Source of the DNA: Coriobacteriia bacterium
GTDB lineage: Bacteria > Actinomycetota > Coriobacteriia > WRKU01 > WQUG01
Length of the DNA: 64,000 nt
Direction: 5' to 3'
Assembly: GCA_009785795.1 (NCBI GenBank)
Contig: WQVN01000001.1
Location: 25,487 to 89,486, forward strand
Under the pieces are notes generated by a model. The model had not been told where the DNA came from. It ran no database searches and saw only the letters and a list, made by a program, of their open reading frames with translations. The translations under genes and the position numbers were made by a program. The stretch's first letter is position 1; every line of letters begins with the position of its first letter. This document shows, one piece after another, positions 41,953 to 64,000 of this stretch.

Positions 41953-43050
41953 CTATTCAAGAAAGTCAACAATTGCTGTGTGTACTTGGTCTGGAACCTC
42001 AAGAAGTGGATTATGGCCAACCCCGCCAAGAATTGTGAGTTCCTTATGAGGTGCTCCAACCCGCACATAATAATCTTCAATCAATTCAACAGGTGTCAAC
42101 CAGTCATTGTCACCCACGATAAAAAGCACAGGCACAGCAAACTGTGCCGCACGATCACGCGCATCATAGGAAAAACTTTCCTGCAGTATGCTTGTCTGGA
42201 TTCGTTCAAATTCTTCCGCAGATATTATGGTCAAAAACCACCGCAGATCGGTCACATTAATAACAGGAGAACTTGCACTGGCCCAGACAGTCACAGGAAT
42301 TGATCGCTGATGTTCGTGAGGCAAATTACTGTGTGCAAGCATTGGTATCCGATTAAAGTAATGTAGCAGGTCTGGGCTATACTCTTCCGTCATTTCTAGC
42401 TGTTCAATCAGGTTCGTTAATTCGCTCGCATCTGCTCTGCTGGTTCGCCCATCTTGCTCGCCTGCAAGCATTTCGCGTGCTGTTATGCCGACACCTTGTC
42501 GCACGTTTACCACCTGGCTGACAGCAATAAATGCCTCAACTTTTTCAGGGTGGCGCTGCACGTATTGGCCGCCTACCACCGTACCCCAAGAATGTCCTAC
42601 CACGATGACCTGACGTGTCGCAAATCGCTCCCGCACGTAGTCAACTATTTCATCCATATCACGTAAGATCAAGTCAAGCGAGACATCTGGTTGATCTACA
42701 TCAAGATTTTCGAAATAAGTCCGTCCAGAGCTGCGCTGATCCCAATGCACAATCGTAAAATCACGTTCAAGCCCGCGCTGAAAGTGATACGCCAAATGAG
42801 GCAGCGGATTTGCAGGTCCGCCATGTACAAAAACAATCACAGAATTGCTGGTACACTCTCCCCTAATTTGCACAAATTGTTGCAACCCTCCAATGTCGAG
42901 GAAGAACTGTTCGTCAACGCCAGTATCTGACACAATACGATACTCATTTGCATTAATCAGTCGAGCGCTCCCAACAATCCCGCATGCCAGAAGCACCAAC
43001 GCCAGCAATGTCAAGCAGACACTACGAACTATCTTTTTTCGATTCCTCAT
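41953..43050 (-). CDS. Secreted or lipid-anchored alpha/beta hydrolase.
   Basis: It has a signal/lipobox (LLACG) and a GHSWG nucleophile elbow. Confidence 0.7.
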   Translation of the reverse strand: MRNRKKIVRSVCLTLLALVLLACGIVGSARLINANEYRIVSDTGVDEQFFLDIGGLQQFVQIRGECTSNSVIVFVHGGPANPLPHLAYHFQRGLERDFTIVHWDQRSSGRTYFENLDVDQPDVSLDLILRDMDEIVDYVRERFATRQVIVVGHSWGTVVGGQYVQRHPEKVEAFIAVSQVVNVRQGVGITAREMLAGEQDGRTSRADASELTNLIEQLEMTEEYSPDLLHYFNRIPMLAHSNLPHEHQRSIPVTVWASASSPVINVTDLRWFLTIISAEEFERIQTSILQESFSYDARDRAAQFAVPVLFIVGDNDWLTPVELIEDYYVRVGAPHKELTILGGVGHNPLLEVPDQVHTAIVDFLE

Positions 43051-43261
43051 GACTCTATTGTAAGTTAATCCATCATCTGGCTTGTATTTTCCCTACCATC
43101 TGAACCTGAAAAGGTTTATCATTAAATATACGTGTAAAACAGCATCGTCCCTCGTCGCAGGCAACTACGCTTGAGTGTCCGCGCACGGGCAGCCGTCTAC
43201 ACGGACAGCTGTGCAAGAGCTGCACAGAGATGAACGATTCAACAGGAATGGATGTAACACG

Positions 43262-44266
43262 ATGAAAAAGAGCTTTAGGACAGTCAGGACACTTTTCATG
43301 GTACTCATCTTGCTGTGCGCGTCCCTTGTTGGGGGCAGCTTAATTGCAGGAGCGTTACCGGAGTATGAGGACAACGGGTCAGATGCGGATGTCCCTACAG
43401 ACGTACAGCCAGTTGATGTTCCAGAAACTGAGGAAGGCATCATGGCAATCAGCGGAGAGCTTGATGCTGAAATGGCTGCCACACTAGGTGGACCCATTAC
43501 TCCCTTTGAATCCATGATTTATAAAGTCATGCAATCGCATGGTTCATGGATTGTTATTGTAGGTGGAGACTTGGCAGAAAATATGCCACTGCCAGCAACT
43601 ATCGAAATCGCAGTGCCCGCAGATGCTCCTGTCTTTTGGTTTGGTGAGGTTGGTAATACAGGCGATCCTGCTCAAGACCCACGCTTTCCACAACCATGGC
43701 AGTTCCGCACAGAGGGTGACTTTGACATCTACACTGCAACTATGACGCAGTATCATCGAGTCCAAATTGAATATAGGCTGAACGATAGCCCATTTAGCCA
43801 AGGACCAGACGGACCCTCAATCCACGTAGAGTACACTCCCTTGCAGGATCTTGAAGAGCTGCGCTTAGCTGTTGCACTACCAGCAGGTGGCGCGGTACTT
43901 GCACGCGATGTTCAGTTCCTCGGTATGGGACCTGGTAATGAACCTGCCTTTGCTCGCATTATCGAAAACGCTCAAGCAGGCGAGTTGTATTCCACAGAAA
44001 TTACCTACACCATTACTGCAGGTGGAAACGCCATAACAAATCTCGACGGCTGGGTAGTTATCGTTCTCGCTGCCCTATTGTTTGGCGGTGCTGCCCTAAC
44101 CTTCTGGCTGTTTATCAAGACAAGAAATAAATCAGCCCACTACGATGATGACTGGAGTGAAGACGAGAGCGTCCAAGAAGATGACGACAGCGACAACGAT
44201 ACAAGCGAAGATGTTGATGATGATCGCTCTGAAGCTTCTAAAAGTGGTGGAGCTTGGGGCAACTAA
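43262..44266 (+). CDS. Paralog A of an uncharacterised type-I membrane protein family, built as a signal peptide, an extracytoplasmic domain of about 230 aa, one TM helix and an acidic cytoplasmic tail.
   Basis: AGGAA precedes the ATG at 43262 (MKKSFRTVRTLFMVLILL). The motifs IAVPADAPVFWFGEV, RTEGDFDIYTA, IEYRL and HVEYTPL are shared with the next two genes. The TM helix is followed by a DDDSDNDTSEDVDDD tail. Confidence 0.7.
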   Translation: MKKSFRTVRTLFMVLILLCASLVGGSLIAGALPEYEDNGSDADVPTDVQPVDVPETEEGIMAISGELDAEMAATLGGPITPFESMIYKVMQSHGSWIVIVGGDLAENMPLPATIEIAVPADAPVFWFGEVGNTGDPAQDPRFPQPWQFRTEGDFDIYTATMTQYHRVQIEYRLNDSPFSQGPDGPSIHVEYTPLQDLEELRLAVALPAGGAVLARDVQFLGMGPGNEPAFARIIENAQAGELYSTEITYTITAGGNAITNLDGWVVIVLAALLFGGAALTFWLFIKTRNKSAHYDDDWSEDESVQEDDDSDNDTSEDVDDDRSEASKSGGAWGN

Positions 44267-45297
44267 TGGCAACATCAACACATAAGGTCACACACAGACT
44301 CAGGGCAAAAATCCTGAGTCTGACCACATATGTTCTTGCGCTATCACTACTTTTAATGGTTCTTGCTCCCACGCTGGGACTACTTGCAGACAGCACCACT
44401 ATGCCGATTCCCGCATTGCTGACTGCTGCGGTTGCTGGAGCAGATGAAACTGATCCAAGCAATACAGCAGACGAACCTGAAGAAGAACGGCTTGTCGCAC
44501 CTGTAGTCGAACCTGCCACAGATCAGATAATGCCTCTGGACTTCGTGCTGTACAAGGTATATCGCACTCCAGATGGCTATGCTGGATTAGTCAGTGGCGG
44601 CATGGACATATCAGAAGAACAACTTCCCGCACGCTTTGAGGTTGCCGTTCCTGCAGGAGTTGAGCTTCTGTGGTTTGGTGAAATACATGGCGGCGATAGA
44701 GAGAACGATCCTGCCTTTCCTGAGCCATTTGAAATGCGCACAGAGGGTGACTTTGACATCTACACTGCTGTCACTACAGTGCCCGTCATGCAGATTGAAT
44801 TCCTACTGGGCTACACTGCCACTGAACTTATGCGTAATGGAAATCATTCAATACACCTAGAATACACCCCTCTGCATAATGCACGAACGTTGCGTTTGGC
44901 GACATATATCCCTGATGGCAGTACCGTACTGGACGCTCCGCTGCTTGAAAACTTAGGTCTATCCCCTCACCTGCATGAATATATTTATGCACGCACCTTC
45001 AGCAATGTTGCCGGTGGCAGAGCCTACGAAATCACTATTGAATACCAGCCCTCAGCGGCTGCGGCACGTCACGGTACCGCTGACCTTGAGATGGGCATCG
45101 TTGTCGTAGCGGTCACAGTGATAGGAACCCTGTTTTTGGCGGCAGGACTCATGTTGCTTGTCAGGCACAGGCGTAACCAAGCAGAGTCATACGATGACAC
45201 AGATTACGATACTTATTACGGCGAAAACAACGATGAAGGCACTGATGATGTTGATGACAGCACAGAAGACAGGGAAGAAAGTAGCGATGACGAGTAA
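44266..45297 (+). CDS. Paralog B of the same family.
   Basis: Its ATG at 44266 overlaps the TAA stop of paralog A in a TAATG junction. It has the same motifs (VAVPAGVELLWFGEI, RTEGDFDIYTA, HLEYTPL), a TM helix and an acidic tail. Confidence 0.7.
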   Translation: MATSTHKVTHRLRAKILSLTTYVLALSLLLMVLAPTLGLLADSTTMPIPALLTAAVAGADETDPSNTADEPEEERLVAPVVEPATDQIMPLDFVLYKVYRTPDGYAGLVSGGMDISEEQLPARFEVAVPAGVELLWFGEIHGGDRENDPAFPEPFEMRTEGDFDIYTAVTTVPVMQIEFLLGYTATELMRNGNHSIHLEYTPLHNARTLRLATYIPDGSTVLDAPLLENLGLSPHLHEYIYARTFSNVAGGRAYEITIEYQPSAAAARHGTADLEMGIVVVAVTVIGTLFLAAGLMLLVRHRRNQAESYDDTDYDTYYGENNDEGTDDVDDSTEDREESSDDE

Positions 45298-46087
45298 TTC
45301 GCTGCAGCTACGCAATTCGCACAGCAGAGGTCAGCGGCAATTCAAAGCGCTCATCCTGTGCTGCGTGATTTTTGCACTGTGTCTAAGCATGGGATTTGGG
45401 CTAGTTCTGCCATCTGCTGCACAGGCTTCACAAGATATCGCTCCCTTCTCCTTTTTGCAATATAAGCAATTTCGTGTTCCTGACGGATATACGGGAGCTG
45501 TGATGGGCATCCTGTATCCAGATGTCGAATTGCCTGCAACAGTACAAATTGCTGTGCCGGAAGGTGTCGATGTCTACTGGTTTGGCGAAGTGCCAGAAGG
45601 TGGAGTCAATCCAGAATCTGTACCCTTTCCAGGAGCTCTTGAGCCTCGAACTGCAGACGGAATGGATATCTATACTGCAGTAGTGCAGAATTCTCACACC
45701 GTTCAAATCGAATTTTACCTCGAAGGCTTTCCTGTGCGGTCACTTCCGAATGGCAACCATTCAATCCAAATTGAATACACGCCACTCGACGACGTCGGCG
45801 TAATGCGTCTGGCCGCTTTTATTCCCGCAGGCAGCGTTGTTCAAAGCCCTGGAGCTGAATACATGGCAACGAGTCCCACAGGCGACATTGCCTATGCCTA
45901 TTCTTTCATTGACATTGAAGCGGGGCAGCGCTTGTCATTTGACATCGAATATATCCCGCCAGAAGTCACTGCTCGTGAAAACGCAGATGGCGTTGCTGGT
46001 GGCATCATGGTTGTCGCAGGAGCACTCTTGCTTACAGCTATCATTGCGATAGTCATGGTGCTGTTCATGAAGGCTCGCAAAAAGTAG
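45287..46087 (+). CDS. Paralog C of the same family, with a short basic tail instead of an acidic one.
   Basis: Its ATG at 45287 lies within the 3' end of paralog B, overlapping it by 11 nt (ATGACGAGTAA). It has an AQA/SQ signal-peptidase site, the motifs IAVPEGVDVYWFGEV and IEYTPL, and a TM helix followed by KARKK. Confidence 0.7.
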   Translation: MTSNSLQLRNSHSRGQRQFKALILCCVIFALCLSMGFGLVLPSAAQASQDIAPFSFLQYKQFRVPDGYTGAVMGILYPDVELPATVQIAVPEGVDVYWFGEVPEGGVNPESVPFPGALEPRTADGMDIYTAVVQNSHTVQIEFYLEGFPVRSLPNGNHSIQIEYTPLDDVGVMRLAAFIPAGSVVQSPGAEYMATSPTGDIAYAYSFIDIEAGQRLSFDIEYIPPEVTARENADGVAGGIMVVAGALLLTAIIAIVMVLFMKARKK

Positions 46088-46113
46088 CGGACGCGAAACA
46101 CAGGAGATCTGAT

Positions 46114-48105
46114 ATGTCCATAAACACGCCCGAAGACCGCGAACTCATACTGCGCGACAAAGCAGCGCGTGAAGGCTTCAATGTGCCACAAGATGTTATT
46201 GATTTTTTGGTCAACCGCTTTGACAGCGAGGTTGGACTAAAAAGCGCACTCATCAATATTGCAATGTTTGCGTCATATCGCTCAATCCCCATTAGTCTTG
46301 ATGTTGCAAAGCTCGTAATTGATGGTGAGAGAGTGCGTCCACTTTCTACGATGACCCCTGAATATGAAGCAGAGCGTGCCACTACATCTACAAGCGCGCC
46401 TGCTGAAAAGCGCGTACCTGCCACACCCATGCAGGCAGCAAGTGCAGCTCCAAAAACACCAGCAGCTTCAGCAGCATCACCGACCCCTAAGCTTGCTGCA
46501 ACACCCCCAGCTGTCAAATCAGAGCAGCAGGATGATCCTCCATCGCTCTTTGATTTGCCCATCCCTACGCCAGCACCTTCTGCACCACAGCCACAAGTTC
46601 CCGAACACGACCTTACAGCACCTTTCACGGTTCAACCTGCCCAGAAGGCTGCAACACCTGTCACCGAGCCTGCTGCATCTACAATACCTACACCAGAACA
46701 GGCACCTGTTGCTGCACCTATATCAGTAAGCCCTGAACCAACAACATCTGCACCTGCAAAACCAGCACCTGTAGCACGATTCTGCTCACAGACTGGTAAA
46801 CCTCTGAATCAGGAAACCACAGTACCGCCTACGCCAGTTGCGACGCCGGCTCCTGAACCAGTAGTGCCAATGCCGATGCCAACACCCGCTGTGCAGCAAG
46901 CTCAATACTTCCAGCCAATCAAAGAGGCTCCTCCCCAACAATCAGAAGCGCAAATGCGCCTTGTCTCGCAAACAGGAAGTGACGTGTTCTTTATTCCCTT
47001 GCGTACTCAGCGCAAGCGATCATTGTTTGAGCGCATCAATTTGGCACTTACTCGCGCCGGCATTGACGACGTGATTCAGGCAGACGACAAGGTCGCTGTT
47101 AAAATTCATTTTGGCGAAGAAGGCAACACTGGCTTTGTCAGTCCAGTCCATGCACGTAATGTAGTAAATCGTGTTAAAGAGTTGGGTGGAAAACCATTCC
47201 TCACTGACACAAACACGCTTTATGCAGGGCAGCGTCAAAACGCCATTGATCACATAAATTGTGCTATCGCAAATGGATTTGGCTATTCAACCGTAGGTGC
47301 GCCCATCATTATTGCAGACGGTCTGATTAGTCGCGATTCTGTTGTCGTGCCCGTCGCTGGTGGAAAACATTTCGAATCGGTGCGCGTTGCAAGTGCCACC
47401 ATAGATGCCGATGTCATGATTGTCATTAGTCACGTCAAGGGACACAGTCTAGCAGGCTTTGGCGGTGCGATCAAGAATATCGGTATGGGGTTGGGTTCGC
47501 GTAGCGCAAAGCAGCGCATGCATTCTGGCATCAAGCCAAGCGTTGTTCCCGATAATTGTACAGCCTGTGCTCGCTGCATTGACTGGTGTCAACCAAAGTG
47601 CATCACTATGGCACAGGGTCAGTCAGGAACACGCTACGCTCACATCAATCATGATGTATGCAATGGCTGTGGCGAATGTCTGACAGCTTGTGCCCATGGT
47701 GCGATTGCTATTAACTGGGACACCTCTCCTCAGGATTTCTTAGAGCGAACTGTTGAACATGCAGCAGGTGCGCTTGCGCACTTTAGTGCAAAAGAACAAA
47801 ACAAGGTCATCTACTTGAACTTTTTAACCAATATCACGCCAGACTGTGATTGCTGCACCTATTCCGATGCCCCCATCGTTGGCGATATTGGCATACTTGT
47901 TAGCTGCGACCCAGTTGCAATTGATCAAGCAGCCGTTGACTTGGTCGAACAAGCACAGGGCGCAAAAGACTCTGTTGGTGAAGACCTCAAGTGCGGTGAT
48001 GAAAAGTTTCAGGCAATCAATGACGTTGATGTTTCTTTGGCAATGCGCTATTCGCAACAACTAGGGCTCGGCTCACAAAACTACCGCCTGCGTACGATTA
48101 ACTGA
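46114..48105 (+). CDS. Fusion protein: DnaA-lid-like helical domain, a Pro/Ala/Thr-rich linker of about 220 aa, and a DUF362 domain with an inserted 2x[4Fe-4S] ferredoxin.
   Basis: An AGGAG RBS precedes the ATG. The N-terminus, ELILRDKAAREGFNVPQDVIDFLVNRFDSEVGLKSALINIAMFASY, resembles the DnaA/Hda AAA+ lid (compare the DnaA segment [33 protein letters not shown]). The C-terminus has CxxCxxCxxxC and CxxCxxCxxxC clusters embedded in a DUF362 core. Confidence 0.7.
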   Translation: MSINTPEDRELILRDKAAREGFNVPQDVIDFLVNRFDSEVGLKSALINIAMFASYRSIPISLDVAKLVIDGERVRPLSTMTPEYEAERATTSTSAPAEKRVPATPMQAASAAPKTPAASAASPTPKLAATPPAVKSEQQDDPPSLFDLPIPTPAPSAPQPQVPEHDLTAPFTVQPAQKAATPVTEPAASTIPTPEQAPVAAPISVSPEPTTSAPAKPAPVARFCSQTGKPLNQETTVPPTPVATPAPEPVVPMPMPTPAVQQAQYFQPIKEAPPQQSEAQMRLVSQTGSDVFFIPLRTQRKRSLFERINLALTRAGIDDVIQADDKVAVKIHFGEEGNTGFVSPVHARNVVNRVKELGGKPFLTDTNTLYAGQRQNAIDHINCAIANGFGYSTVGAPIIIADGLISRDSVVVPVAGGKHFESVRVASATIDADVMIVISHVKGHSLAGFGGAIKNIGMGLGSRSAKQRMHSGIKPSVVPDNCTACARCIDWCQPKCITMAQGQSGTRYAHINHDVCNGCGECLTACAHGAIAINWDTSPQDFLERTVEHAAGALAHFSAKEQNKVIYLNFLTNITPDCDCCTYSDAPIVGDIGILVSCDPVAIDQAAVDLVEQAQGAKDSVGEDLKCGDEKFQAINDVDVSLAMRYSQQLGLGSQNYRLRTIN

Positions 48106-48123
48106 CCAGCCGAATACATACCT

Positions 48124-48885
48124 ATGACTGGTGATACATCACCTGGAACGCTCTACGTCGTTGCCACCCCCATTGGCAACTTGGGAGATATGACCTTGCG
48201 TGCAATTGAAGTTTTGCAGCAAGTATCGGCAGTCTATTCAGAAGATACGCGTGTTTCCAGACGGCTGTTTAATCACTTTGGAATCGATACGCCACTCAAA
48301 CGCTTCGATGACAGAACAAGCTCACGTAAAATTCCTGAGATTTGTACGCACCTAAAAACTGGCGCAGACATTGCACTGATAAGTGATGCAGGAACTCCTA
48401 CAATCTCTGATCCTGGAATGCCACTAGTCGCCGCAGCACGTGCAGACAATATCCCCGTTACGGTAGTTCCTGGTGCAAGCGCAGCTGTGGCAGCGCTTTC
48501 AATTAGTGGACTGCCTGCTCATGCCTACTACTTTGGCAGCTTTCTGCCCCGCAAAAAAGGCAAGTGCGAAACCTTGCTACAGTCGCTAGATATGCTAAAC
48601 GCCACTCTGATTTTTTTCGAATCTCCTCACCGCATTGTGACAGCAACACAGCACCTCGCACAGCTCTACCCCAATAGACAGGCAGTCATCGCACGCGAAC
48701 TGACAAAACATTATGAAGAAGTTTTGCGCGGCAATCTAGAAGAGCTGTCTGCAGAGCTCACTCACAGGCAAAACAATAATCTAGTCAGCACACTGCGGGG
48801 CGAGTTCGTTATACTATTAGCTCCGCTTAAATTTGACGGCACACATACTGATGGCATAAAAGACAGACAAAGGCAGGATTCATGA
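48124..48885 (+). CDS. rsmI: 16S rRNA (cytidine1402-2'-O)-methyltransferase RsmI.
   Basis: It has the tetrapyrrole-methylase fold, with LYVVATPIGNLGDMTLRA and ISDAGTPTISDPG. Confidence 0.85.
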   Translation: MTGDTSPGTLYVVATPIGNLGDMTLRAIEVLQQVSAVYSEDTRVSRRLFNHFGIDTPLKRFDDRTSSRKIPEICTHLKTGADIALISDAGTPTISDPGMPLVAAARADNIPVTVVPGASAAVAALSISGLPAHAYYFGSFLPRKKGKCETLLQSLDMLNATLIFFESPHRIVTATQHLAQLYPNRQAVIARELTKHYEEVLRGNLEELSAELTHRQNNNLVSTLRGEFVILLAPLKFDGTHTDGIKDRQRQDS

Positions 48886-50111
48886 AATACGCAATTGTAA
48901 TACTCGACGGAGCAGCTGACTACAAAATTGGACAGCTTAACAACAAGACTATTATTGAGGCTGCAACAACGCCCATTCTGGATATGATGGCACAACAAGG
49001 AATGGTAGGTCTTGCTCGCACTGTTCCAGAAGGCATGGAAGTATCCTCCAATGCAGCATGTACTTCAATTCTAGGTTATGACCCTGTTGCAAACTTCATT
49101 GGGCGCGGTGCTATTGAAGCTGCAGGACAGGGCATTGAACTTGCTCCTGACGAGATTGCCATGCGCATCAACACGCTAACTATTCTAGATGGCAACATGG
49201 CTAGCTATGCAGGCGGCAATATCTCTACTGCAGATTCCACTGCAATTGTCACGCGCCTTGCCGAACACCTTAATGACGACACTTTCACCTTTTATCCTGG
49301 CAAAGCCTATCGCCATATCTTGGTCGCCAAGGGATATCCAGAGGTAATGAACTTGAACTATACTCCCCCACACGACATTAGTGATATGCCCATTGGCCTT
49401 GATGAATTGCCAAATGGTCAAGGCGAAGATGCACGTCCACTACTCGAAATGATGGCACATGCTCATGAGATCTTGAAGGATGACCCCACGAATGCGCGCT
49501 TGGTTGAAGCGGGAGAGTTGCCCATTACCGATATCTGGCCTTTCTGGCCAGGCACTGCCTCGCAAAATCTGCAATCCTTCAAAGAAGCATATGGCTTACG
49601 AGCATCCATGACCAGCAGCGTTGACCTTTTGCGCGGTATGGCAGATCTTTTTGGCATCAACTTTTTAGAAATTGATGGCGTGACCGATGGCCTAGATAAT
49701 GATTTTGGTGCACAGGCTGACGGCGCTATTGATGCAATCAAGAATGACACTGCTGATCTGGTCATCATTCACGTCGAAGCTCCCGATGAGATGGGTCATC
49801 AAGGCGACATCGAAAAGAAGCTCAAAGCTGTTGAGCTTATTGACCACAAGATCATGAGCAGACTTTTTGCCTATGCCAAGCAACTTGAGTCAACAGAAGA
49901 TAGTCCAGGATTTCGCATTCTTGCCATGCCTGACCATTTCACCCCCATATCAAGCAGAACACACGAGGATGATCCCGTGCCCTTCTTAATCTGGGGTGAC
50001 GGCATCAAAGAAAATGGTGCCAGGGTCTACAGCGAAGAAGAAGCAATGCGCACAGGTCTTTTACTTGACCCCAACGGCTATGAGGTATTCAAGCTCTTAA
50101 CAGGCAGCTGA
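48882..50111 (+). CDS. apgM: 2,3-bisphosphoglycerate-independent phosphoglycerate mutase, archaeal-type.
   Basis: It belongs to the ApgM family (MKYAIVILDGAADY..., metalloenzyme domain). It overlaps the rsmI stop by 4 nt. Confidence 0.8.
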   Translation: MKYAIVILDGAADYKIGQLNNKTIIEAATTPILDMMAQQGMVGLARTVPEGMEVSSNAACTSILGYDPVANFIGRGAIEAAGQGIELAPDEIAMRINTLTILDGNMASYAGGNISTADSTAIVTRLAEHLNDDTFTFYPGKAYRHILVAKGYPEVMNLNYTPPHDISDMPIGLDELPNGQGEDARPLLEMMAHAHEILKDDPTNARLVEAGELPITDIWPFWPGTASQNLQSFKEAYGLRASMTSSVDLLRGMADLFGINFLEIDGVTDGLDNDFGAQADGAIDAIKNDTADLVIIHVEAPDEMGHQGDIEKKLKAVELIDHKIMSRLFAYAKQLESTEDSPGFRILAMPDHFTPISSRTHEDDPVPFLIWGDGIKENGARVYSEEEAMRTGLLLDPNGYEVFKLLTGS

Positions 50112-50150
50112 ACATTGCGCGTCGACCGATCAGAAAAGCGATAGTAACAC

Positions 50151-50561
50151 TCATAGCAGGTTCTCGCACCCGTTATTGCTTTTGCGTGGCAGATGGGACA
50201 TGTCTTCATTAGGTTCATGTTCTTCTCCTAATTTCGCGGTTATATTTTCAATATGGTCACCTACAAGCAACCATGCGTTTTTGCTTGCAGGTCGTTCAAG
50301 CACGCTATGCGTTTTGGGCGGACTTTGGCAGACACGATTCGGAACTACATTCCTGTACAACGCAATTACTTGTCCCTGCCTGTTTAAGAATGCGAGGTCA
50401 AGCGCATACTGCATGCCAAAGGTGTGTACTCCCTTACACGGAATTAGATGCAGCACATCGAAATTAAGCTGATGTTGTCTGGTGCCTAAAAGACCTTTCA
50501 TGCGTCCGTAATAACTGGTGACCGTCTTGACCTTCATGCATGTTTTATGTGTTCTGCTCAT
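50151..50561 (-). CDS. DUF192-family protein (COG1430) at the distal end of the Tad operon.
   Basis: The ORF is 136 aa and reads like DUF192 (CKGVHTFGMQYALDLAFL). Confidence 0.6.
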   Translation of the reverse strand: MSRTHKTCMKVKTVTSYYGRMKGLLGTRQHQLNFDVLHLIPCKGVHTFGMQYALDLAFLNRQGQVIALYRNVVPNRVCQSPPKTHSVLERPASKNAWLLVGDHIENITAKLGEEHEPNEDMSHLPRKSNNGCENLL

Positions 50562-50999
50562 TTATAGTCCTGTGCTCCAAAAAATGTTCAAACTTTTTTC
50601 GCGCGTCAGAAACTCTGGTGAGCTTGCAGCTGCACTTGCAAAAATGCGTGTCGCAAACAACTCGTATTCAAATGTAAAGTGCAGTGTTCTCTTTTGCAGA
50701 AATAGTTCACCGCTGCTCTCAACATGTACCTGAATCCTATAAGGACCTTTTGATCCTTTGTCATATCCCATAGCCTCATCAAGCACCTGACCTGCTATCG
50801 CTACCGGATCTTCACTCGATGTCACCAATGCGCGCGCAACTTCATTTACGGAACGATCAAAGCGTGCTGCCTCTGCAAAAAACATGCCCACATTCACTAT
50901 GATTGCTAACACTAGCAACACACAGGGGATCAGCATGACCAATTCTGCCGTCATCTGTCCGCACTCGCAGCGAAGCCGCTTCAAACAAGGCAACATCAT
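50562..50999 (-). CDS. TadE/TadF-like pseudopilin.
   Basis: Its N-terminus is GQMTAELVMLIPCVLLVLAII, the TadE-like signature. Confidence 0.65.
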   Translation of the reverse strand: MMLPCLKRLRCECGQMTAELVMLIPCVLLVLAIIVNVGMFFAEAARFDRSVNEVARALVTSSEDPVAIAGQVLDEAMGYDKGSKGPYRIQVHVESSGELFLQKRTLHFTFEYELFATRIFASAAASSPEFLTREKSLNIFWSTGL

Positions 51000-53140
51000 C
51001 GAAATCCCAGCGCGACGAAGAGTTCTTGCTCTCTGCCTCGAACAGACTCGAAAGCAGTGCTTGCCATATTTTGCACTGTCTGACTAAAGGGTAGTGGAAT
51101 ACTGACTCCCAATACGCGAACTTGCATCAGCTCTTCAATGCGACTACCAACATCTGCATCAAGTTCATTAATCATGCCACTTATAGCTTCGCGCATACCT
51201 GCAATTGAAGCACCTCCACTTTGCTCAAGCCCCTCTTTTGCTGTAGCAACCGATTGGACAAAGCTGCCTTCAAATCCTGACGCATTGATATCTCCAACAT
51301 CTGAAGTACTGACTAGTGTTGGCATAGGTCTACGCAAATCTGGAGCACTTATCTGAGCTGTATCAAAGAATGATCGTAGGCTGCTCGTTGCAATGCTGTC
51401 CAAGCCAAAAGGCAATCCCAGCATTAAGCGCTCAATTTGTGCACTGCCATCTGCATGCATCTGTAGGCAACTGCCCCAGATGCTTAAGGCAAATCCAATA
51501 ACCGATCCTGCAAAGCTATCATCCTCACCACCTAAAAGTTCATGTGTCACGCCTGCAAAGCCCTCTACTCCTGCACTATCTGCCATATCAGCAGACTGTG
51601 ACAACAAGCTGGGAATCGTTGACTCGCCACCTGATGGCATGAGGCGTGCACCTGCCATTGCCATCTGCCTACCTAAAACAACATCCTCGGAAGCGGTCAA
51701 AACTGGCAGTGTAAATGCTGGCAGTTCACGCTGCCCTGATGACACAACAACACAAATGTAGCCCCGCGCACCAGCAGGTGTGTAACTTAAGCGATTGCCT
51801 ATCAAAAATGATTTCGACTCTTCAAGCAATAAATCAAATGCATCCTGCGTTCTTTCACGAACCTGATCTTGTTCAAGCTCAATTGATTCTGTCGCCTGAT
51901 ACCACCAACGCAGTGCTGCTGCCTCAAAGTTCCAAGATTGGACGTACTCTGCCAATTGTTGTTCCCATACTTGCAAGGCGCGCCAATGCGGAGGTTCGCA
52001 CAATACGCAGGGTGGATGGTCAACATCACCAGCGACATAACTTAAGGTGCGCGTGCGCAATTCTGCTGTTGAGCCTGCAAGCCCAAAGCAATTCGGATTG
52101 CTGTGATATGCTCTACGATCACCATCAGCACGTTCTAGCACGTAGATGCGTTGTCCGCGTTCGCTACCAAGCAAGTCACTCATGCTAATATCTGCAACAT
52201 CGGCAGCCTCTGTCGCGGCCGCTCTATCTAAAATCACATGGACTTGTTCATCCACGGACTGTCCTATGCGACGATAGTCCTGCAGATAGCGCTCTTGCAG
52301 GCGGTCACGGTTAATCTGTGTGTTATCAATCGGCACAGGACCATCAATCACTGGTATTGACTGCGCCTGTAATTCTCCCCACCCGCGAGCAAAATCGTCA
52401 ATAGCAGACAAAGGATTCCAATGAGCCCTACTAGTTCCTGGCAGCAAAAAGACATTTAGTCGGAAACATTCATCAACGGCCGCCTCGACATCGCCCTCTA
52501 ATCGCTTGATTTCATGGGCAGACTCGGTATTTTCTTTGCCTGCCCTTGTCACTTCTTGTAGTAACTGGTCTGCATCACCAGAAGAATTTGTCAATTCAAC
52601 TTTTCCGCGCAAAGGAAAGGGTACTGCTATCGCTGTATAGGCTGTACCATTAAAGTCCCCCAACAGTCGCGAATTTTCCGTTGCCGAATAATAGCTGGTC
52701 GCCATTGCCAAATAAGGAGTTGCCTCGCTAACCACAGATGCCAACTGATAGGCATGTTGTGCAAATTCACGCCGCTTTTTGCAGTATCGATAATTGAAGT
52801 CAACTATCCGTTCAAGAAAAGGCGTCGCGGCCACACCTCCAACAGGTGCCGAAAGCACCGTTAGCAAGCCTGCCACAATCGTTATTGCATGAAGCACTAA
52901 TCCAAATAAATTTGCCGTAAGTAACATAGCATCGAGAGCTTGAATTAGCATGACAGACTGCGCTGTTACATCAGCTGCTGCCAAAGCCCCAATGTCTGCC
53001 ACAACTTGAATATCTGAAGAGGTCGAGTTTGTCCAGTACCACTGCACGCTGGATGCTAGTAACACCACACTGAGCATAATACCTAGCACCATCGTTAATG
53101 ATGTTGAACCTTCTTCATTTTTGAACCATGAAAGCCTCAT
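50996..53140 (-). CDS. Large (714 aa) TadG-like membrane-anchored protein.
   Basis: It has an N-terminal Tad_N-like segment (EEGSTSLTMVLGIMLSVVLLA) and a long soluble region with no other domain I recognise. Confidence 0.6.
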   Translation of the reverse strand: MRLSWFKNEEGSTSLTMVLGIMLSVVLLASSVQWYWTNSTSSDIQVVADIGALAAADVTAQSVMLIQALDAMLLTANLFGLVLHAITIVAGLLTVLSAPVGGVAATPFLERIVDFNYRYCKKRREFAQHAYQLASVVSEATPYLAMATSYYSATENSRLLGDFNGTAYTAIAVPFPLRGKVELTNSSGDADQLLQEVTRAGKENTESAHEIKRLEGDVEAAVDECFRLNVFLLPGTSRAHWNPLSAIDDFARGWGELQAQSIPVIDGPVPIDNTQINRDRLQERYLQDYRRIGQSVDEQVHVILDRAAATEAADVADISMSDLLGSERGQRIYVLERADGDRRAYHSNPNCFGLAGSTAELRTRTLSYVAGDVDHPPCVLCEPPHWRALQVWEQQLAEYVQSWNFEAAALRWWYQATESIELEQDQVRERTQDAFDLLLEESKSFLIGNRLSYTPAGARGYICVVVSSGQRELPAFTLPVLTASEDVVLGRQMAMAGARLMPSGGESTIPSLLSQSADMADSAGVEGFAGVTHELLGGEDDSFAGSVIGFALSIWGSCLQMHADGSAQIERLMLGLPFGLDSIATSSLRSFFDTAQISAPDLRRPMPTLVSTSDVGDINASGFEGSFVQSVATAKEGLEQSGGASIAGMREAISGMINELDADVGSRIEELMQVRVLGVSIPLPFSQTVQNMASTAFESVRGREQELFVALGFR

Positions 53141-53166
53141 GATTACTGCACCATCCTTATCTGTCC

Positions 53167-53757
53167 TTACCTATTAGGAACAAACCCGAACTGTTGGGGA
53201 GCATTCTGTGGTGTCCCTTCAACCCCTTGTTGTGTGCCACGCACGACAGCATGACCAGTGACTTCAACATTCTGATTTATGCTTGCTCCTACTAAAAATC
53301 CCATCAATGGCAATGGTTCTTGCTTTAGCGAAACACTTACTTCTATGACTTCTGAGCGCGAATTGCCACTAACCTCAACCTGCAATGTTCCGGGAATCCA
53401 AAAAGCATCGCCCCTCGGCAGACCCGCTAATCTATCTGCTGCATAACTGTGCAATAATCCGTCCTGTCCATGACCTGTTTCTTCGTCTTTTGTCGCCACA
53501 ATTCGACCAATTCCTACCGCGACCTGTCCCAATGTCATCTGTGTGTATAAATAGATAGCAGGCTGTATCATCATTAGGATAAGCACGCACATGATTAGGA
53601 TGACCCAGGGCAACTCTGCAAGAGCTTGTCCTTTTTCATTTTGTCGCAGCTTTGCAAGAATCTGCCCTTTAGCGTCTTGCCATAACTTTATACAGGTCTG
53701 TCCGTTTTCGCGCCGTACTTTAAACGAAACTAGTGCATGATTAGATCCTTTAGCCAT
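53167..53757 (-). CDS. tadE: TadE-like pseudopilin.
   Basis: It has GQALAELPWVILIMCVLILMMIQ. Its N-terminal leader contains a short duplicated KGQxLAxL unit. Confidence 0.65.
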   Translation of the reverse strand: MAKGSNHALVSFKVRRENGQTCIKLWQDAKGQILAKLRQNEKGQALAELPWVILIMCVLILMMIQPAIYLYTQMTLGQVAVGIGRIVATKDEETGHGQDGLLHSYAADRLAGLPRGDAFWIPGTLQVEVSGNSRSEVIEVSVSLKQEPLPLMGFLVGASINQNVEVTGHAVVRGTQQGVEGTPQNAPQQFGFVPNR

Positions 53758-53951
53758 TGACCACTAACCCCCGTTCCTGCAGGTGGCAATGAATAAGGTG
53801 CATGTAGGTACGTTCGCGAACTGTGCGTATCTGCATTGGACTCTGCTGCACTAAAATAGCTGAGCAAGGCTGCCCCAGCCAGCACCACAGCAAGGCTCAC
53901 AAGCAGCGCAATAACATACTCTGCATTCGCCTGCCCACTTTCATTGCGCAT
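53730..53951 (-). CDS. flp: Flp-family pilin or pseudopilin (second copy).
   Basis: It has the G/QANAEYVIALLVSLAVVLAG Flp prepilin motif. Its start overlaps the stop of the upstream flp in a TGATG junction. Confidence 0.6.
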   Translation of the reverse strand: MRNESGQANAEYVIALLVSLAVVLAGAALLSYFSAAESNADTHSSRTYLHAPYSLPPAGTGVSGQWLKDLIMH

Positions 53952-54145
53952 CACGCAATGCCGCCCAATTGACTGGTTATGCTTTCCCACACATTTACCA
54001 GTTGCTCATGAAACGCAATCGCTAGAATGATGCAAGCAATCACAATGACCGCTAGAATAATGACGTACTCTGAAACCCCTTGTCCGCAGTCCTTGCGCAC
54101 ATAACTCAAGCCTCTTGCCATGCAACTCAAAACCATATCTCTCAT
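53951..54145 (-). CDS. flp: Flp pilin.
   Basis: The ORF is 64 aa. It has the Flp prepilin motif G/QGVSEYVIILAVIVIA followed by a hydrophobic helix. Confidence 0.75.
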   Translation of the reverse strand: MRDMVLSCMARGLSYVRKDCGQGVSEYVIILAVIVIACIILAIAFHEQLVNVWESITSQLGGIA

Positions 54146-54273
54146 AAAGCTTTCCTCTCATCTTATTGTTATGACTACCTAACCAGCTTTGATGCTTCTG
54201 ATGAATGAACATTGTTTCTGAAAGCAACGTGCAGCACCTATACGTAAGGCTTCAAGAACAACACTCGGCTTCA

Positions 54274-55089
54274 TCAGAAATTGCCCATTCCGGTTAGAAC
54301 TTGTGCCATGATTGGTCCCATCAGCAAGATTAATACTGCTGGTACGATGCATAAGCCTAGCGGAGCCAGAATTTTCACGGGAGTCTTTGCAATGCGCTCT
54401 TCGAGGCGTGCAATACGATATTCGCGCACATCCCGAGAAAAGGTTCCCAGCACAGTTCCCAGTGGTGAGCCCAGAGAAAATGCCTGACGTAAAGCATTCA
54501 CAAATCGCAGTACCGCCTCTTCCTGTAGTGAGTCTGCAAGCTGTTCAAAGGCCTTCATGCGCGAAAGCATTCCTGCCTGATACACCTGCTCTGCGCGACG
54601 AAACTCGTCTGCAAGTGGCGTATCATAGCGCGATAAATACCAGTCAAAAGCCTGGTCAACAGACAATCCTGCACCCAAAGCAAGCAGCAAAATATCAATC
54701 ATCTCGGGCAAGTCGTTTACACAACTATCGCGCAAAGCCTGTGCCTGTCGCTGCTCTATCTTCGATACAATAGGTTTCGCAAATACGCGGACTACAGGAA
54801 GCTCAACCGCTACATTTATTGCCTGATTCAAGCTATTTATTGCATCAGAAAAACCTGCAACACTCACGCCTCTGTCCTGCTTGACTTTGTGTACGGTAAG
54901 CACAGCACCATTACTGTCAATGCTTCCTATTCCCTTAAGGTCATGCAAGCTCTTGCGCTGTTTGCGCGTATGACTTTCGTCAAATTGAAACAGACAGTAT
55001 GCCATCATGCTGACAAGCACAGCTACAGCACTTACGCATATAAGACCCAAAATAAGACCTTGGATCTCTAGATTCGTCAGACTAAACAT
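54274..55089 (-). CDS. tadC: Tad pilus inner-membrane platform protein TadC (T2SSF domain).
   Basis: It has the T2SSF fold with TM helices. Confidence 0.75.
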   Translation of the reverse strand: MFSLTNLEIQGLILGLICVSAVAVLVSMMAYCLFQFDESHTRKQRKSLHDLKGIGSIDSNGAVLTVHKVKQDRGVSVAGFSDAINSLNQAINVAVELPVVRVFAKPIVSKIEQRQAQALRDSCVNDLPEMIDILLLALGAGLSVDQAFDWYLSRYDTPLADEFRRAEQVYQAGMLSRMKAFEQLADSLQEEAVLRFVNALRQAFSLGSPLGTVLGTFSRDVREYRIARLEERIAKTPVKILAPLGLCIVPAVLILLMGPIMAQVLTGMGNF

Positions 55090-56173
55090 GGATATTTACC
55101 ACCGAGCGAACCCATAAGAATCCAACAACTACCAATCCTATCGCCAGAACAAACAGCATTTGTCCTCCCGCAGTGCTTAGCCACAAACCCAAATATCCTG
55201 GCATCATCAGTGAGAGTAGCCCAATCAAGATAAAGGGAATGCTGCCCACTAAACGCACAGAGCTTCTTCCCTGTGCCGTTTGAACCTTTAGCTTCTTGTT
55301 CAGCATCAAATCCTGCCGAATGGAGGTCGCCAGCTCTTCAAGTAACGCAGGGGCACTTCCTCCAATTTGGGCAGTAATATCTATGACCGCTGCCACTGAT
55401 TTAAGTTCGCGGAGTTCTGTTGCACCTGCCATATCATGTAAACTTTTTGAATAATTGCGCCCTAAGCTTGCATCTGCATCAAGGCGTCGCAGCACATCAA
55501 TTGTCGGACTATCTTCACTTTGCCCATCAAGAACAAAACGTAATGCCTGTGAAAACGATCTGCCAGCACGCAAGGATTGTGCTAGTTCATCCAACATGTC
55601 AGGAATTGCTGCACGTAGTGCCTGGCGTCGCCCATCTGCACAAGCCTGCACATAAACCAAGCTACCTATCACCATAAGCACAGCCATAGCAATGGATAAC
55701 AAAGGTGAGCCTAGGGCAACACCCAGTATCATGAACAACAGCAGAACAGCAAGCCACCATTGCAAAACAGCCTCGATATGCTCTACAAAGCCTGCTTGTT
55801 CCAACAATCGCAAGAATCGTCTGCCTGCAACACTATGCTCGCACAATGTTCGGCATGGTCCACTTGTCTTACTCCCCCACAGGGGACGCTTCCACAGGGA
55901 TAAAGTTACACCTTCTCTGCTGCCTGTTTCACTATTAGCAAGCATTGCCTCTGAAGCTATTTTGCCTTGCAGGCGCAGGCGCAATTGCTGCTCATCGCGC
56001 TGTGCTTGTGCTACATCAAAAAGCATTGACGCGAGGGTACTAACCGCGTACCAAGTGCAACCCACCGCACATGCAGCAACGGTAATCCAAAAGAACTGTG
56101 CCAGTACTCCATTCAGCACTCCAAGCTCAAGATTAAGCATGTGCAATCTCCTCTCGCCACAGTGCAAGTTCAT
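55082..56173 (-). CDS. tadB: Tad pilus inner-membrane platform protein TadB (T2SSF domain).
   Basis: It has the T2SSF fold and overlaps tadC and tadA. Confidence 0.75.
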   Translation of the reverse strand: MNLHCGERRLHMLNLELGVLNGVLAQFFWITVAACAVGCTWYAVSTLASMLFDVAQAQRDEQQLRLRLQGKIASEAMLANSETGSREGVTLSLWKRPLWGSKTSGPCRTLCEHSVAGRRFLRLLEQAGFVEHIEAVLQWWLAVLLLFMILGVALGSPLLSIAMAVLMVIGSLVYVQACADGRRQALRAAIPDMLDELAQSLRAGRSFSQALRFVLDGQSEDSPTIDVLRRLDADASLGRNYSKSLHDMAGATELRELKSVAAVIDITAQIGGSAPALLEELATSIRQDLMLNKKLKVQTAQGRSSVRLVGSIPFILIGLLSLMMPGYLGLWLSTAGGQMLFVLAIGLVVVGFLWVRSVVNIHV

Positions 56174-57491
56174 TAGAGTCTGTTACATTTTGAACAAGCA
56201 GCGAATCAACAAAAGTTGGCACTGCAAGGAATCTTGACTGTCCCAATACTGCACCATCATCACCCATTCCTGTCTGTTCAAAACAGTAGATTGGGCGCAA
56301 GTAATATCCTTGCTTACGCCTTGTAGCAATATCGTGCACGTTGTCAGCATGAACAGAATCTGCCACTTTGCTGTCATCACCATTCGACTGGCCATCATCT
56401 GTGCACAGCTCTACCACTTCAATTATTCGGCGTTTGCCATCAGAACAGCGTTGTACATGCACTATAAGATCAAGAGCAGCAGCAATTTGCGCCTCGATTT
56501 GTGTCTGCGATTGATTTGTTCCATAGCCAACCATAGTAATGAGCCTTGTAATAACCTCATGTGGAGTATTCGCATGAAGCGTCGTCAGTGAACCATCATG
56601 TCCCGTATTCATTGCTTGCAGCATTTCGAGTGCTTCAGCGCCACGTACCTCGCCCACAACAATGCGATCAGGACGCATACGCAAGCTATTAATTACCAAG
56701 TCGCGCATGGATATCTCACCCTGCCCTTCAAGATTTGGCGGACGTGCTTCTAAGCGCAGTACATGCGGATGTGCAGAAAATTTCAATTCCGCAGAATCCT
56801 CAATAGTGATAATGCGTTCATCTGCAGGAATTTCTAAAGACAGGGCATTAAGTAATGTTGTCTTGCCACTGCCCGTTCCCCCACTGACAGCAATATTCTG
56901 TCCACTTGCAACGGCCCAACTAAGCAGAGTCGCCAGCCGTGCATCAACACTATTCATCGTCGCTAGCTCATTTAGTGAAAAGGTAAAATCGCTAAACTTG
57001 CGAATTGTCAACAAAGGCCCACTTAGAGACACCGGTGGTATTATCGCGTTAACACGATGCCCTGCAGCAAGACGCCCATTGACCATAGGATTTTGTTCGT
57101 CAATGCGTCGTCCGATAGGCGATATTATTCGGTCAATTGCAGTACGCAACTGCTCTTCACTGCCATAACTATCGGGACTTAAGATTATCTTGCCCTCGCG
57201 CTCAAAGAATATCCTGTCCTCACCATTTACCATGATTTCTGTGACACTGGGATCTGCAAGGAGTGAATCAATGACGCCCAATCCCAGCACTTCACTTGCC
57301 GTAAGTGCGACTAATCTATCACGCTGTTCTCGTGACTTAAATCGTACAGATCCTGTCTGCGCAAGCCTGCGTAAAACTTCTTCAACTTCTTTTCGTGCCA
57401 TGTCGCTATCTGCTTTTAGCAGCGCAGCAATGCGCTCAGGACTGAAAATTTGATACAGTTCGGACTTAAGCTGTTCGATATTCTGGCGCAC
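56133..57491 (-). CDS. tadA: Tad secretion ATPase TadA/CpaF.
   Basis: It has a GGTGSGKTTLLNALS Walker A motif and belongs to the VirB11/CpaF family. Confidence 0.9.
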   Translation of the reverse strand: MRQNIEQLKSELYQIFSPERIAALLKADSDMARKEVEEVLRRLAQTGSVRFKSREQRDRLVALTASEVLGLGVIDSLLADPSVTEIMVNGEDRIFFEREGKIILSPDSYGSEEQLRTAIDRIISPIGRRIDEQNPMVNGRLAAGHRVNAIIPPVSLSGPLLTIRKFSDFTFSLNELATMNSVDARLATLLSWAVASGQNIAVSGGTGSGKTTLLNALSLEIPADERIITIEDSAELKFSAHPHVLRLEARPPNLEGQGEISMRDLVINSLRMRPDRIVVGEVRGAEALEMLQAMNTGHDGSLTTLHANTPHEVITRLITMVGYGTNQSQTQIEAQIAAALDLIVHVQRCSDGKRRIIEVVELCTDDGQSNGDDSKVADSVHADNVHDIATRRKQGYYLRPIYCFEQTGMGDDGAVLGQSRFLAVPTFVDSLLVQNVTDSNELALWREEIAHA

Positions 57492-58917: not shown

Positions 58918-59644
58918 GCGCCGCTGTTAGAACTTGCTCGACTTGCGCATCTGGGATAGCGAGTGTGACCCAAGTAATAGACTCATTGCCACTTTGCATT
59001 CTATTGGTACCACTGCTTGCACTGCCACCAATCAGTGTTGTCCGTCCATCACTCACATCATCGCTGGCAGCAGCATTTTCTCTTCCCATCTGCACTGCAG
59101 ATGTGTTTGCGGACAACACCTCAATACTGTGCGCTAATTCCTCTACACGACCGTTGGGTACCGCTGCCATTAGGCTTAAATGCATGCCACGTACTAATTC
59201 TCCGCCTAATGCATGAACATTGTCTGTTGACAGGGTAACTGCAGTCATTCCTTCAGCAAGACGATCCAATGGGAGAGCCTGGTCAAATATGCGCGCTTTT
59301 GTCGCCACTTCCCCTGCCAATATGACTGCACTTGTTCTGTGGCCTTCAATGCGCTCATAATCCTGTGCTGCTATAGCTCCTTCTGGCAAATATATCTGCG
59401 GCCACAGCTGCTGTTCAAACAAGTGGCTCGTCAGTACCGTACCCACATCAATTTGCTCGCGGGCGACCAACACTTGCTGCAATTCGCCATCAAATTGCTC
59501 AATAGCTTCTGCACGAGCATTGCTCGCAGATTGCGCATAGCTAAACAGAAAAAGTCCTGCGCACAGTGCTCCAATCAACCCAGCACCCATCGATGCAATT
59601 AACTTCCTGTTCTGTTTCACCTTGTTCCTCCTCGCGCAAAGCAT
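58847..59644 (-). CDS. cpaB: Flp pilus assembly protein CpaB/RcpC (SAF domain).
   Basis: It has an N-terminal TM helix and a SAF-like domain (EQIDVGTVLT). Confidence 0.75.
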   Translation of the reverse strand: MLCARRNKVKQNRKLIASMGAGLIGALCAGLFLFSYAQSASNARAEAIEQFDGELQQVLVAREQIDVGTVLTSHLFEQQLWPQIYLPEGAIAAQDYERIEGHRTSAVILAGEVATKARIFDQALPLDRLAEGMTAVTLSTDNVHALGGELVRGMHLSLMAAVPNGRVEELAHSIEVLSANTSAVQMGRENAAASDDVSDGRTTLIGGSASSGTNRMQSGNESITWVTLAIPDAQVEQVLTAARAGAIHLVLPAAAFTADDTELDE

Positions 59645-63840: not shown

Positions 63841-64000
63841 AGTCCTTTGCCTGCTTCTTAAGCCATGCTCCATCAATAATCCATCGCGTAGTCATATAAA
63901 AATCATACAATCCTACCCGTACAATAATACAATACCGCGGCTAAATATGATAGTTTTACTCTAAAAAAGTGCTGGACTGTCGTGAATTTCGAGGCAATCC

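Follow-up and report, generated by a model that had tools for sequence, protein, structure and literature searches.

A 663-residue protein encoded in a 64,000-nucleotide stretch of a Coriobacteriia bacterium genome (assembly GCA_009785795.1, contig WQVN01000001.1, positions 25,487 to 89,486 of the forward strand; hereafter the window) consists of three parts: an N-terminal lid of the type found in DnaA, a disordered linker rich in Pro, Ala, Thr and Gln, and a DUF362 domain with a ferredoxin-type insert. The architecture, which joins a DnaA fragment, a clamp-type motif within the linker and a LarA-like iron-sulfur (Fe-S) enzyme, is new; its function is wholly inferred. The protein may be an adaptor that tethers a redox enzyme to DnaA and/or the beta-clamp DnaN, analogous to YabA or Hda, a reading that we put forward tentatively. 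The gene and its parts are as follows, in window coordinates.

46102..46106, + strand: Shine–Dalgarno sequence AGGAG, read directly; the ATG lies 7 nt further on
46114..48105, + strand: whole gene for the lid–linker–DUF362/Fe-S protein, 663 residues; ATG start, TGA stop included in the range
46123..46329, + strand: DnaA-derived AAA+ lid, a domain IIIb-like four-helix bundle, residues 4–72 (profile, AlphaFold2 (AF2) and Foldseek)
46330..46983, + strand: disordered Pro/Ala/Thr/Gln-rich linker, residues 73–290, 218 residues (composition)
46537..46566, + strand: PPSLFDLPIP, residues 142–151, candidate beta-clamp-binding motif (motif statistics over 96 linkers)
46984..48102, + strand: DUF362 domain with LarA-like fold, residues 291–663 (PF04015, AF2 and Foldseek)
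47440..47523, + strand: GH444-x9-K454-x15-H470 segment (residue alignment to 5huq_A 157–202)
47557..47691, + strand: ferredoxin-type insert with two CxxCxxCxxxC motifs (Fer4_7), predicted to hold two [4Fe-4S] clusters
47839..47856, + strand: PDCDCC, in which C578-D579-C580 are invariant (columns C291/D292/C293 of alignment A3)

The DnaA-type lid and its distribution

The lid module comprises about 70 residues in four helices. With the single sequence, Pfam Hda_lid matched residues 8–38 (E=1.5e-4; 22 bits, under the gathering score of 27), residues 7–69 of the N-terminal fragment aligned to positions 272–335 of the NCBIfam DnaA model TIGR00362 (E=7e-6), and phmmer of residues 1–90 against the PDB returned residues 279–339 of B. 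subtilis DnaA (8bv3/8btg; E=5e-5). A profile built from 37 family modules (alignment A1) matched B. subtilis DnaA 278–352 in the PDB with E=8.9e-15, with T. maritima DnaA second (1e-4). Because all 37 family lids individually matched TIGR00362 (best 4.7e-10) and 30 matched the Hda model, the family lid is nearer in sequence to DnaA than to Hda; Pfam Hda_lid was matched by 26 of the 37.

The AF2 model of the lid is a confident four-helix bundle (predicted local distance difference test score, pLDDT, 90). Its top Foldseek match in the PDB was DnaA domain III (8bv3_A; root-mean-square deviation 1.1 Å over 65 columns, 34% identity), and the remaining top matches were AAA+ lids throughout (RuvBL, RuvB, Hda, FtsH). 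An earlier first-pass annotation, made from the letters alone, had described the N-terminus as a DnaA- or Hda-type lid lacking the ATPase core. The profile, the family-wide TIGR00362 matches and the structure comparison, which placed DnaA domain III first rather than a generic helix-turn-helix, bear out the assignment. The missing core was likewise confirmed: no Bac_DnaA or AAA match was found in the 663 residues at E≤1 in Pfam and NCBIfam, and hence no AAA+ base with Walker A/B and Box VII Arg finger; the sole DnaA-model match there was the lid stretch (model 272–335). DnaA domains IV and I gave no Bac_DnaA_C or DnaA_N match in Pfam, and the linker directly follows the lid.

An exhaustive profile search of 1.84 billion representatives set 11 family representatives apart at 85–122 bits, with the module at about residues 8–82, from non-family matches at 79 bits or less, which lay at internal positions as usual for DnaA. 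The nearest non-family relatives were actinobacterial DnaA fragments, about 50% identical to the family lid consensus by eye. Since the profile, fold and exhaustive-search evidence agree, the module is a duplicated DnaA domain IIIb of the host phylum. Mean column identity of the lid alignment is 57%, and its conservation indicates that the module is kept under selection. Two basic residues of helix 1, R9 and K16, are invariant in family lids; the invariant Lys is aligned with Arg177 of Hda, whose structure shows that residue hydrogen-bonded to the adenine/ribose (PMC5397184). The sensor-II Arg of the SNxRELEGAL box is gone, replaced by Gln or Gly together with a one-residue deletion (SEVG-LKSAL in the window protein; family consensus Q.LKGAL), and the Glu of the RELEGAL box has become Lys.

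The same layout was found in about 95 of the 120 best whole-protein matches, which are 90%-identity cluster representatives from NCBI, JGI, ENA and Logan assemblies; 92 of these were detected by a first lid pattern, and P0016, P0037 and P0061 by eye or by a second pattern. Homologues begin with the same N-terminus, MS(I/V)xTPEDRE. The database comparison proposed in the first-pass annotation thus showed that the fusion recurs: what had been called an unusual fusion is indeed a fusion, but not a one-off. Public data contain an identical 663-residue protein, MCL2379225.1, encoded on a 109.5-kb contig; a partial entry from a separate deposition, MCL2606812.1, runs across the lid–linker–DUF362 junctions with identical sequence. 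Databases call these proteins no more than "DUF362 domain-containing protein" or "uncharacterized Fe-S center protein". Carriers of the strict lid pattern [IV]LRDKAARE were metagenome-assembled genomes, either of Coriobacteriia, several of which have names that point to termite-gut studies, or of unclassified Actinomycetota, but one locus, L009, is labelled uncultured Eubacteriales bacterium. The lid–linker–DUF362 protein is a conserved family in uncultured Coriobacteriia/Actinomycetota. In the literature, neither this architecture nor a stand-alone DnaA lid was found described.

The linker and its floating Leu-Phe motif

The linker is composed of 21.6% Pro, 17.0% Ala, 11.5% Thr and 8.3% Gln, and its DNA has a strong C-rich GC skew. 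The first-pass annotation had placed a low-complexity linker of about 220 residues at 46330–46980, close to the 218 residues at 46330–46983 delimited here. A search for tandem repeats found only a trivial 20-nt array, which marks the linker as low-complexity rather than repetitive. Among homologues its length ranges from about 50 to 400 residues, and the linkers cannot be aligned.

Within this variable segment a short motif recurs. In the window protein it reads DDPPSLFDLPIPT, with the core SLF at S144-L145-F146 (residues 144–146, nt 46543–46551). Leu-Phe was present in 85 of 96 family linkers against 15.7±3.4 in composition-matched shuffles, and [ST]LF in 69 of 96 against 2.5±1.5 (maximum 8 in 500 shuffles), although the linker sequences are related and such statistics overstate their independence. 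The logo reads x-x-[TS]-L-F, with T in 53 and S in 15 of 84, and its flanks are acidic and Pro-rich. The motif lies 10–247 residues ahead of the DUF362 domain. Because its distance to both domains varies, the motif is, on sequence grounds, a floating short linear motif rather than a folded element. Where Leu-Phe is absent, most linkers have another hydrophobic motif at a similar place, TLELPL/TMELPL (four members), QPTLDL or QASFDL; taken together, x-x-[TS]-L-F or the xLxLP[LIV]/QxxLxL type was found in 93 of 96 linkers, against 15.7±3.6 in shuffles. The hexapeptide-type forms, xLELPL and QxxLxL, are confined to some subclades.

Beta-clamp-binding motifs have been described in comparable forms. 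The pentapeptide motif is QL(S/D)LF (PMC9690074). Actinobacterial EndoMS/NucS carries [EK][LY][TR]LF (ELTLF in C. glutamicum), which is needed for clamp binding and function and was validated genetically and biochemically in an actinobacterium (PMC6159515). In the Hda hexapeptide QLSLPL, Leu7, Leu9, Pro10 and Leu11 occupy the clamp cleft (PMC5397184). The two flavours of the linker motif look like these two documented flavours of clamp motif, and we regard it as a candidate clamp-binding motif. Its conservation, unseen by the first-pass annotation, indirectly bolsters the proposed DnaA link.

Several linkers (P0055, P0063, P0066, P0075, P0091 and others) carry a pair of Leu-Phe motifs separated by a few residues, as in DTLFVAEAPSLFEEP. 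Such pairs could match the two clefts of the clamp dimer, or could simply raise avidity.

The DUF362 domain, lid-less orthologues and gene neighbourhood

The catalytic part of the protein matched the whole of PF04015 (residues 327–609; model 1–200 of 200; E=8.8e-49, 166.7 bits against a cut-off of 24), so that the complete DUF362 domain named earlier was upheld by the profile search suggested for it. The two 4Fe-4S sites read from the sequence were also recovered, as two CxxCxxCxxxC motifs at C482/485/488/492 (residues 482–492) and C516/519/522/526 (residues 516–526), covered by a Fer4_7 match at residues 481–530 (E=3e-6; 28.0 bits against a cut-off of 27); the clusters are predicted. All eight cysteines are invariant in the 21 sequences of alignment A3. 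By sequence, the DUF362 body returned only ferredoxin-type matches from the PDB.

Structural comparison pointed to the lactate racemase LarA, a nickel-pincer nucleotide enzyme with a two-domain fold. The AF2 model of the domain (pLDDT 81; predicted template modelling score 0.83) gave LarA or LarA homologues as its top 14 Foldseek matches (2yjg/5huq/6c1w best; E from 7.5e-7 to 4e-4; template modelling (TM) score ~0.4), and Pfam Lar_N matched a partial region at residues 421–472 (23.8 bits against a cut-off of 23.3). This agrees with the placing of DUF362 and DUF2088 in one Pfam clan (PMC11770544). H444, K454 and H470 align with His174, Lys184 and His200 of L. plantarum LarA with identical spacing, in a pairwise alignment that is weak alone (E ~0.9), and all three are invariant in A3. 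In LarA these residues are the catalytic His, the Lys that tethers the nickel-pincer nucleotide and the fourth Ni ligand, respectively (PMC11770544). The invariant C578-D579-C580 is a possible additional metal site, judging from its conservation. Neither larB, larC and larE, which serve the biosynthesis of the nickel-pincer nucleotide, nor another lar gene was found among the annotated open reading frames (ORFs) of the window. The domain may reasonably be read as an oxidoreductase in which a LarA-like cofactor site is coupled to two [4Fe-4S] clusters. The DUF362 family is large, and no described function for DUF362/COG2768 was found in the literature; the LarA-type His/Lys/His beside two [4Fe-4S] clusters suggests that DUF362 Fe-S proteins may hold a pincer-type or related cofactor tied to electron transfer.

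Orthologues without the extension are about 370 residues long (368–375), and their DUF362 domains are 75–88% identical to those of the nearest lid-bearing forms. Average-linkage clustering of identity distances, which is unrooted, placed the lid-less forms in several groups interleaved with lid-bearing groups, so the extension appears to have been lost or gained repeatedly. Two of the three lid-less proteins examined occupy a slot in the gene order ROK–DUF362–DUF7544–rsmI–metG–tatD, which is the type-B slot described below, and each time the ROK gene runs 4 nt into the start of the DUF362 gene, leaving no space for a lid; the third, P0119 (L023), lies in an unrelated neighbourhood with no rsmI nearby. 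Because lid-less orthologues sit in the identical slot upstream of rsmI, the lid and linker are, as far as sequence comparison tells, an accessory module without which the enzyme works. No DUF362 column separates lid-bearing from lid-less orthologues, and for this reason the extension does not appear to be co-adapted with the catalytic domain. Docking of the lid on its own DUF362 domain was considered and set aside, as no DUF362 column co-varies with lid presence.

The window gene itself has a Met within EAQMRLVSQTGSDVFFIPL, at 46960–46990 (residues 283–292), just ahead of the DUF362 domain, and the public gene call of a close relative, P0013 (385 residues), begins at about the Met preceding DUF362. 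A lid-less isoform might conceivably arise from an internal start at this Met.

Two neighbouring features frame the gene.

43175..46087, + strand: three paralogous single-pass membrane proteins, immediately upstream, 33–39% pairwise identity; context, with a functional link only possible
48124..48885, + strand: rsmI, 16S rRNA 2'-O-methyltransferase family (TP_methylase, E=3.6e-33)

On the upstream side, 26 nt separate the gene from the membrane-protein gene, in agreement with the first annotation; the distance to rsmI, given as 19 nt, measures 18 nt. A promoter and terminator scan of 42800–50400 found sites no more frequent than in shuffles, a result that says little but is consistent with co-transcription of the membrane-protein genes, the lid–DUF362 gene, rsmI and apgM. 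The rsmI gene lay downstream in nine of ten contexts (7/7 lid-bearing, 2/3 lid-less); in each of the nine it was on the same strand, 0–2 genes away, the lid-bearing contexts being the window, L001/L002, L003 and L019–L022, and the run after it often continues with an AbrB-like gene, metG, tatD and ksgA.

Neighbourhoods were of two types. In type A, seen in the window and its near relatives, the upstream side has from one to three acidic-tailed single-pass membrane proteins, paralogous to each other. The triplet is orthologous in L001 and has single copies in L019 and L021, and its proteins matched no Pfam or NCBIfam family. Each has an N-terminal signal or transmembrane segment, a domain of about 200 residues and a C-terminal transmembrane segment, with a strongly acidic tail in the first two; the listed ORFs overlap, and the second and third genes probably start further downstream than listed. 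In type B, a ROK-family gene lies upstream, and DUF7544-type membrane proteins stand between the DUF362 gene and rsmI. These DUF7544-family or related multi-pass proteins with Pro-rich tails (L003 9729–11837; L020 10741–11907; L022 10693–11628; L024 9136–10284) occur in that position regardless of the lid. The membrane neighbours were considered as partners of the lid and rejected: those of type A and those of type B come from unrelated families, and DUF7544 is still there when the lid is missing.

At 10–17 kb, the contexts L003, L022, L024 and L025 carry rsmI, an AbrB/MazE-like gene on the opposite strand, metG, tatD, an FMN reductase gene, a DUF348–G5–3D gene and ksgA. This order mirrors the B. 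subtilis run yabA–yabB–yazA–rsmI–abrB–metS–yabD–yabE–ksgA, in which yabA, the gene for the DnaA/DnaN-binding regulator, is two genes upstream of rsmI. The B. subtilis locus tags are BSU00330 for yabA and BSU00360 for rsmI (PMC3814617). The positional analogy is probably coincidental, since lid-less DUF362 genes hold the same slot.

Elsewhere in the window, a Tad/Flp-type pilus cluster occupies 50562–59644 (− strand), with a TadE-like protein, two T2SSF proteins, a T2SSE ATPase, a receiver–ParA-like TadZ and RcpC/CpaB, as well as a 714-residue (50996–53140) and a 196-residue (53167–53757) protein without a Pfam family. A 542-residue ORF at 62248–63876 (− strand) shows weak multihaem cytochrome signatures, with an MtrC/MtrF-like domain and paired CXXCH, and is unusual for a Coriobacteriia-type genome. 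An aldo/keto reductase with a C-terminal 4Fe-4S dicluster domain (8358–9518, + strand) is a second Fe-S-decorated enzyme.

Proposed role, alternatives and comparison with known systems

In the adaptor reading, a LarA-like DUF362 Fe-S enzyme would have gained a modular N-terminal adaptor, made of a duplicated actinobacterial DnaA lid and a motif-bearing linker. In classical AAA+ assemblies the lid packs against the large subdomain, so an orphan lid could occupy the DnaA base or cap a filament. The lid would then dock in trans on DnaA, with the nucleotide-binding base subdomain or a filament end as the most plausible site, and the linker motif would enter DnaN's hydrophobic cleft. In this way the protein would hold DnaA at the clamp, bridging or sequestering it in a YabA-like manner, or at least place a redox enzyme at the replication machinery, and the Fe-S/LarA-like domain would give a redox- or metabolite-dependent input. 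Mycobacteria have no identified homologue of Hda or YabA (PMC5720831), so a regulator of DnaA activity in Actinomycetota would answer a need. DnaA binding, DnaN binding, an effect on initiation and redox gating are all inferred, as was the DnaA- or AAA+-interacting, redox-sensing role that the first-pass annotation had drawn from the sequence.

Several observations weigh against this reading. Two residues of the canonical clamp motif, a first-position Gln and a hydrophobic residue in second place, are mostly missing from the linker motif (position −3 is T20 P15 A9 E8 Q7 and position −2 is P20 G15 D15), so that three of five positions fit, and a motif of the Leu-Phe type could bind another partner; the relatedness of the linkers also tempers the shuffle statistics. 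An Hda-like RIDA mechanism (DnaA's regulatory inactivation) is excluded, because the protein has no AAA+ base or Arg finger and has also lost the sensor-II Arg. Close relatives do without the extension, which is therefore inessential to the enzyme. The family was found only in uncultured lineages, at a minimum of 15 loci among 185,579 species genomes, a lower bound obtained with the single strict pattern given above. No replication gene is annotated in the 64-kb window, and DnaA boxes (TTNTCCACA, at most 1 mismatch) number 58 there against 64±7 expected; none is placed meaningfully near the operon, and the window gives no sign of DnaA-box regulation or of an origin.

The lid may instead be a helical bundle repurposed for oligomerisation, autoregulation or a partner unrelated to DnaA, with the Leu-Phe motif directed at some other partner, such as the domain of the enzyme itself, a redox partner or one of the neighbouring membrane proteins; we consider this somewhat unlikely. 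The loss of the sensor-II Arg, the Glu-to-Lys change in the RELEGAL box, the membrane-protein genes that always flank the gene and a linker motif without the canonical Q and L at positions 1 and 2 would fit it. Yet the flanking membrane proteins come from two unrelated families while the extension is the same in both neighbourhood types, lid-less orthologues retain the DUF7544 neighbour, no DUF362 column co-varies with the lid, and alternation between pentapeptide and hexapeptide forms is known behaviour of clamp motifs.

We think it unlikely that the protein is simply an enzyme targeted to the replisome or origin, whose lid and motif bind DnaA and/or DnaN for localisation and leave initiation unaffected. 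The same structural evidence as for the adaptor would serve it, and the DUF362 domain, which stands alone in sister lineages, is strongly conserved and keeps its putative active site intact, as fits a catalytic enzyme better than a pure sensor. On the other side, no LarA-type or DUF362 chemistry is known on DNA or nucleotides, and the conserved neighbours are housekeeping genes for rRNA and tRNA (rsmI, metG, tatD, ksgA), not replication genes.

At its most ambitious, the adaptor would be an unrecognised initiation regulator of Actinomycetota, a YabA/Hda-like bridge between DnaA and the clamp gated by the Fe-S/LarA-like domain, in which a lid mimic would cap or occupy the AAA+ base of DnaA with a clamp-binding motif alongside; we judge this improbable. 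If this version held, chromosome replication would be coupled to redox or metabolic state in strict anaerobes.

An artefact, either an assembly chimera or a frameshift fusion of a small lid ORF with a stand-alone DUF362 gene, might be suspected from the 370-residue lid-less proteins and from a few lid-only fragments of 86–238 residues in databases, but it is effectively excluded by the continuous ORF, the same layout in the ~95 cluster representatives from independent assemblies and sources, two separate public entries identical in protein sequence over the junction, the good ribosome-binding site at the lid start and the truncated or frameshifted look of the short lid-only entries; the fusion as first annotated thus survives the chimera test.

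Stand-alone AAA+ lids are not recognised as a class of regulatory module. If the adaptor reading is right, the initiator would be addressed in a new way, through a selected orphan DnaA lid combined with a clamp-type motif; if the lid binds something other than DnaA, the protein would still be a well-defined new domain architecture, of modest interest.

Compared with the Gram-positive and actinobacterial DnaA lid (8bv3/8btg), the module shares the four-helix fold and keeps the positions ETR..IL..KA, P..V and L.GAL. Unlike DnaA, the family protein has no domain I, ATPase base or domain IV, and its lid heads an unrelated enzyme. Hda of E. coli resembles it in that a DnaA-related module is joined to a flexible segment bearing a clamp-binding motif, for which the linkers have a candidate. 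The Hda hexapeptide QLSLPL and the TLELPL of one subclade agree at all four cleft-contact positions; set against the Hda-type motif QL[SP]LPL/QLSLF, 93 of the 96 linkers carry x-x-[TS]-L-F or xLELPL, with Q1 and L2 mostly absent. Hda keeps a full AAA+ base, whose Arg153 finger triggers ATP hydrolysis on DnaA, whereas the family protein has no base, and Hda has no Fe-S or enzyme domain. The motif of NucS, like that of the linkers (consensus x-x-[TS]-L-F), lacks Gln and ends in T-L-F; it is C-terminal with a hydrophobic position 2, whereas the linker motif is internal and has mostly P, G or D there. YabA, which inhibits initiation in B. subtilis, is similar in the proposed logic, with a helical N-terminal module, a flexible linker, a metal-binding C-terminal domain and no ATPase. 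YabA bridges DnaA and DnaN, binding both through its Zn domain; the 663-residue protein gave no match to the YabA family, defined by a coiled coil and a Zn-binding C-terminal domain, among Pfam and NCBIfam at E≤1 and has no sequence homology to it.

For the enzyme, the LarA superfamily (Pfam clan CL0471) is the best structural match, with H/K/H kept at identical spacing, but LarA has no ferredoxin insert and is matched at a TM score of only ~0.4; LarA also uses a second catalytic His, His108, and Arg75, which binds phosphate. The stand-alone DUF362/COG2768 "uncharacterized Fe-S center proteins" share the orthologous catalytic domain, the ferredoxin insert and the slot upstream of rsmI, and are without the 130–480-residue N-terminal lid and linker; orthologues that differ in the presence of the lid form natural pairs suited to a clean comparison.

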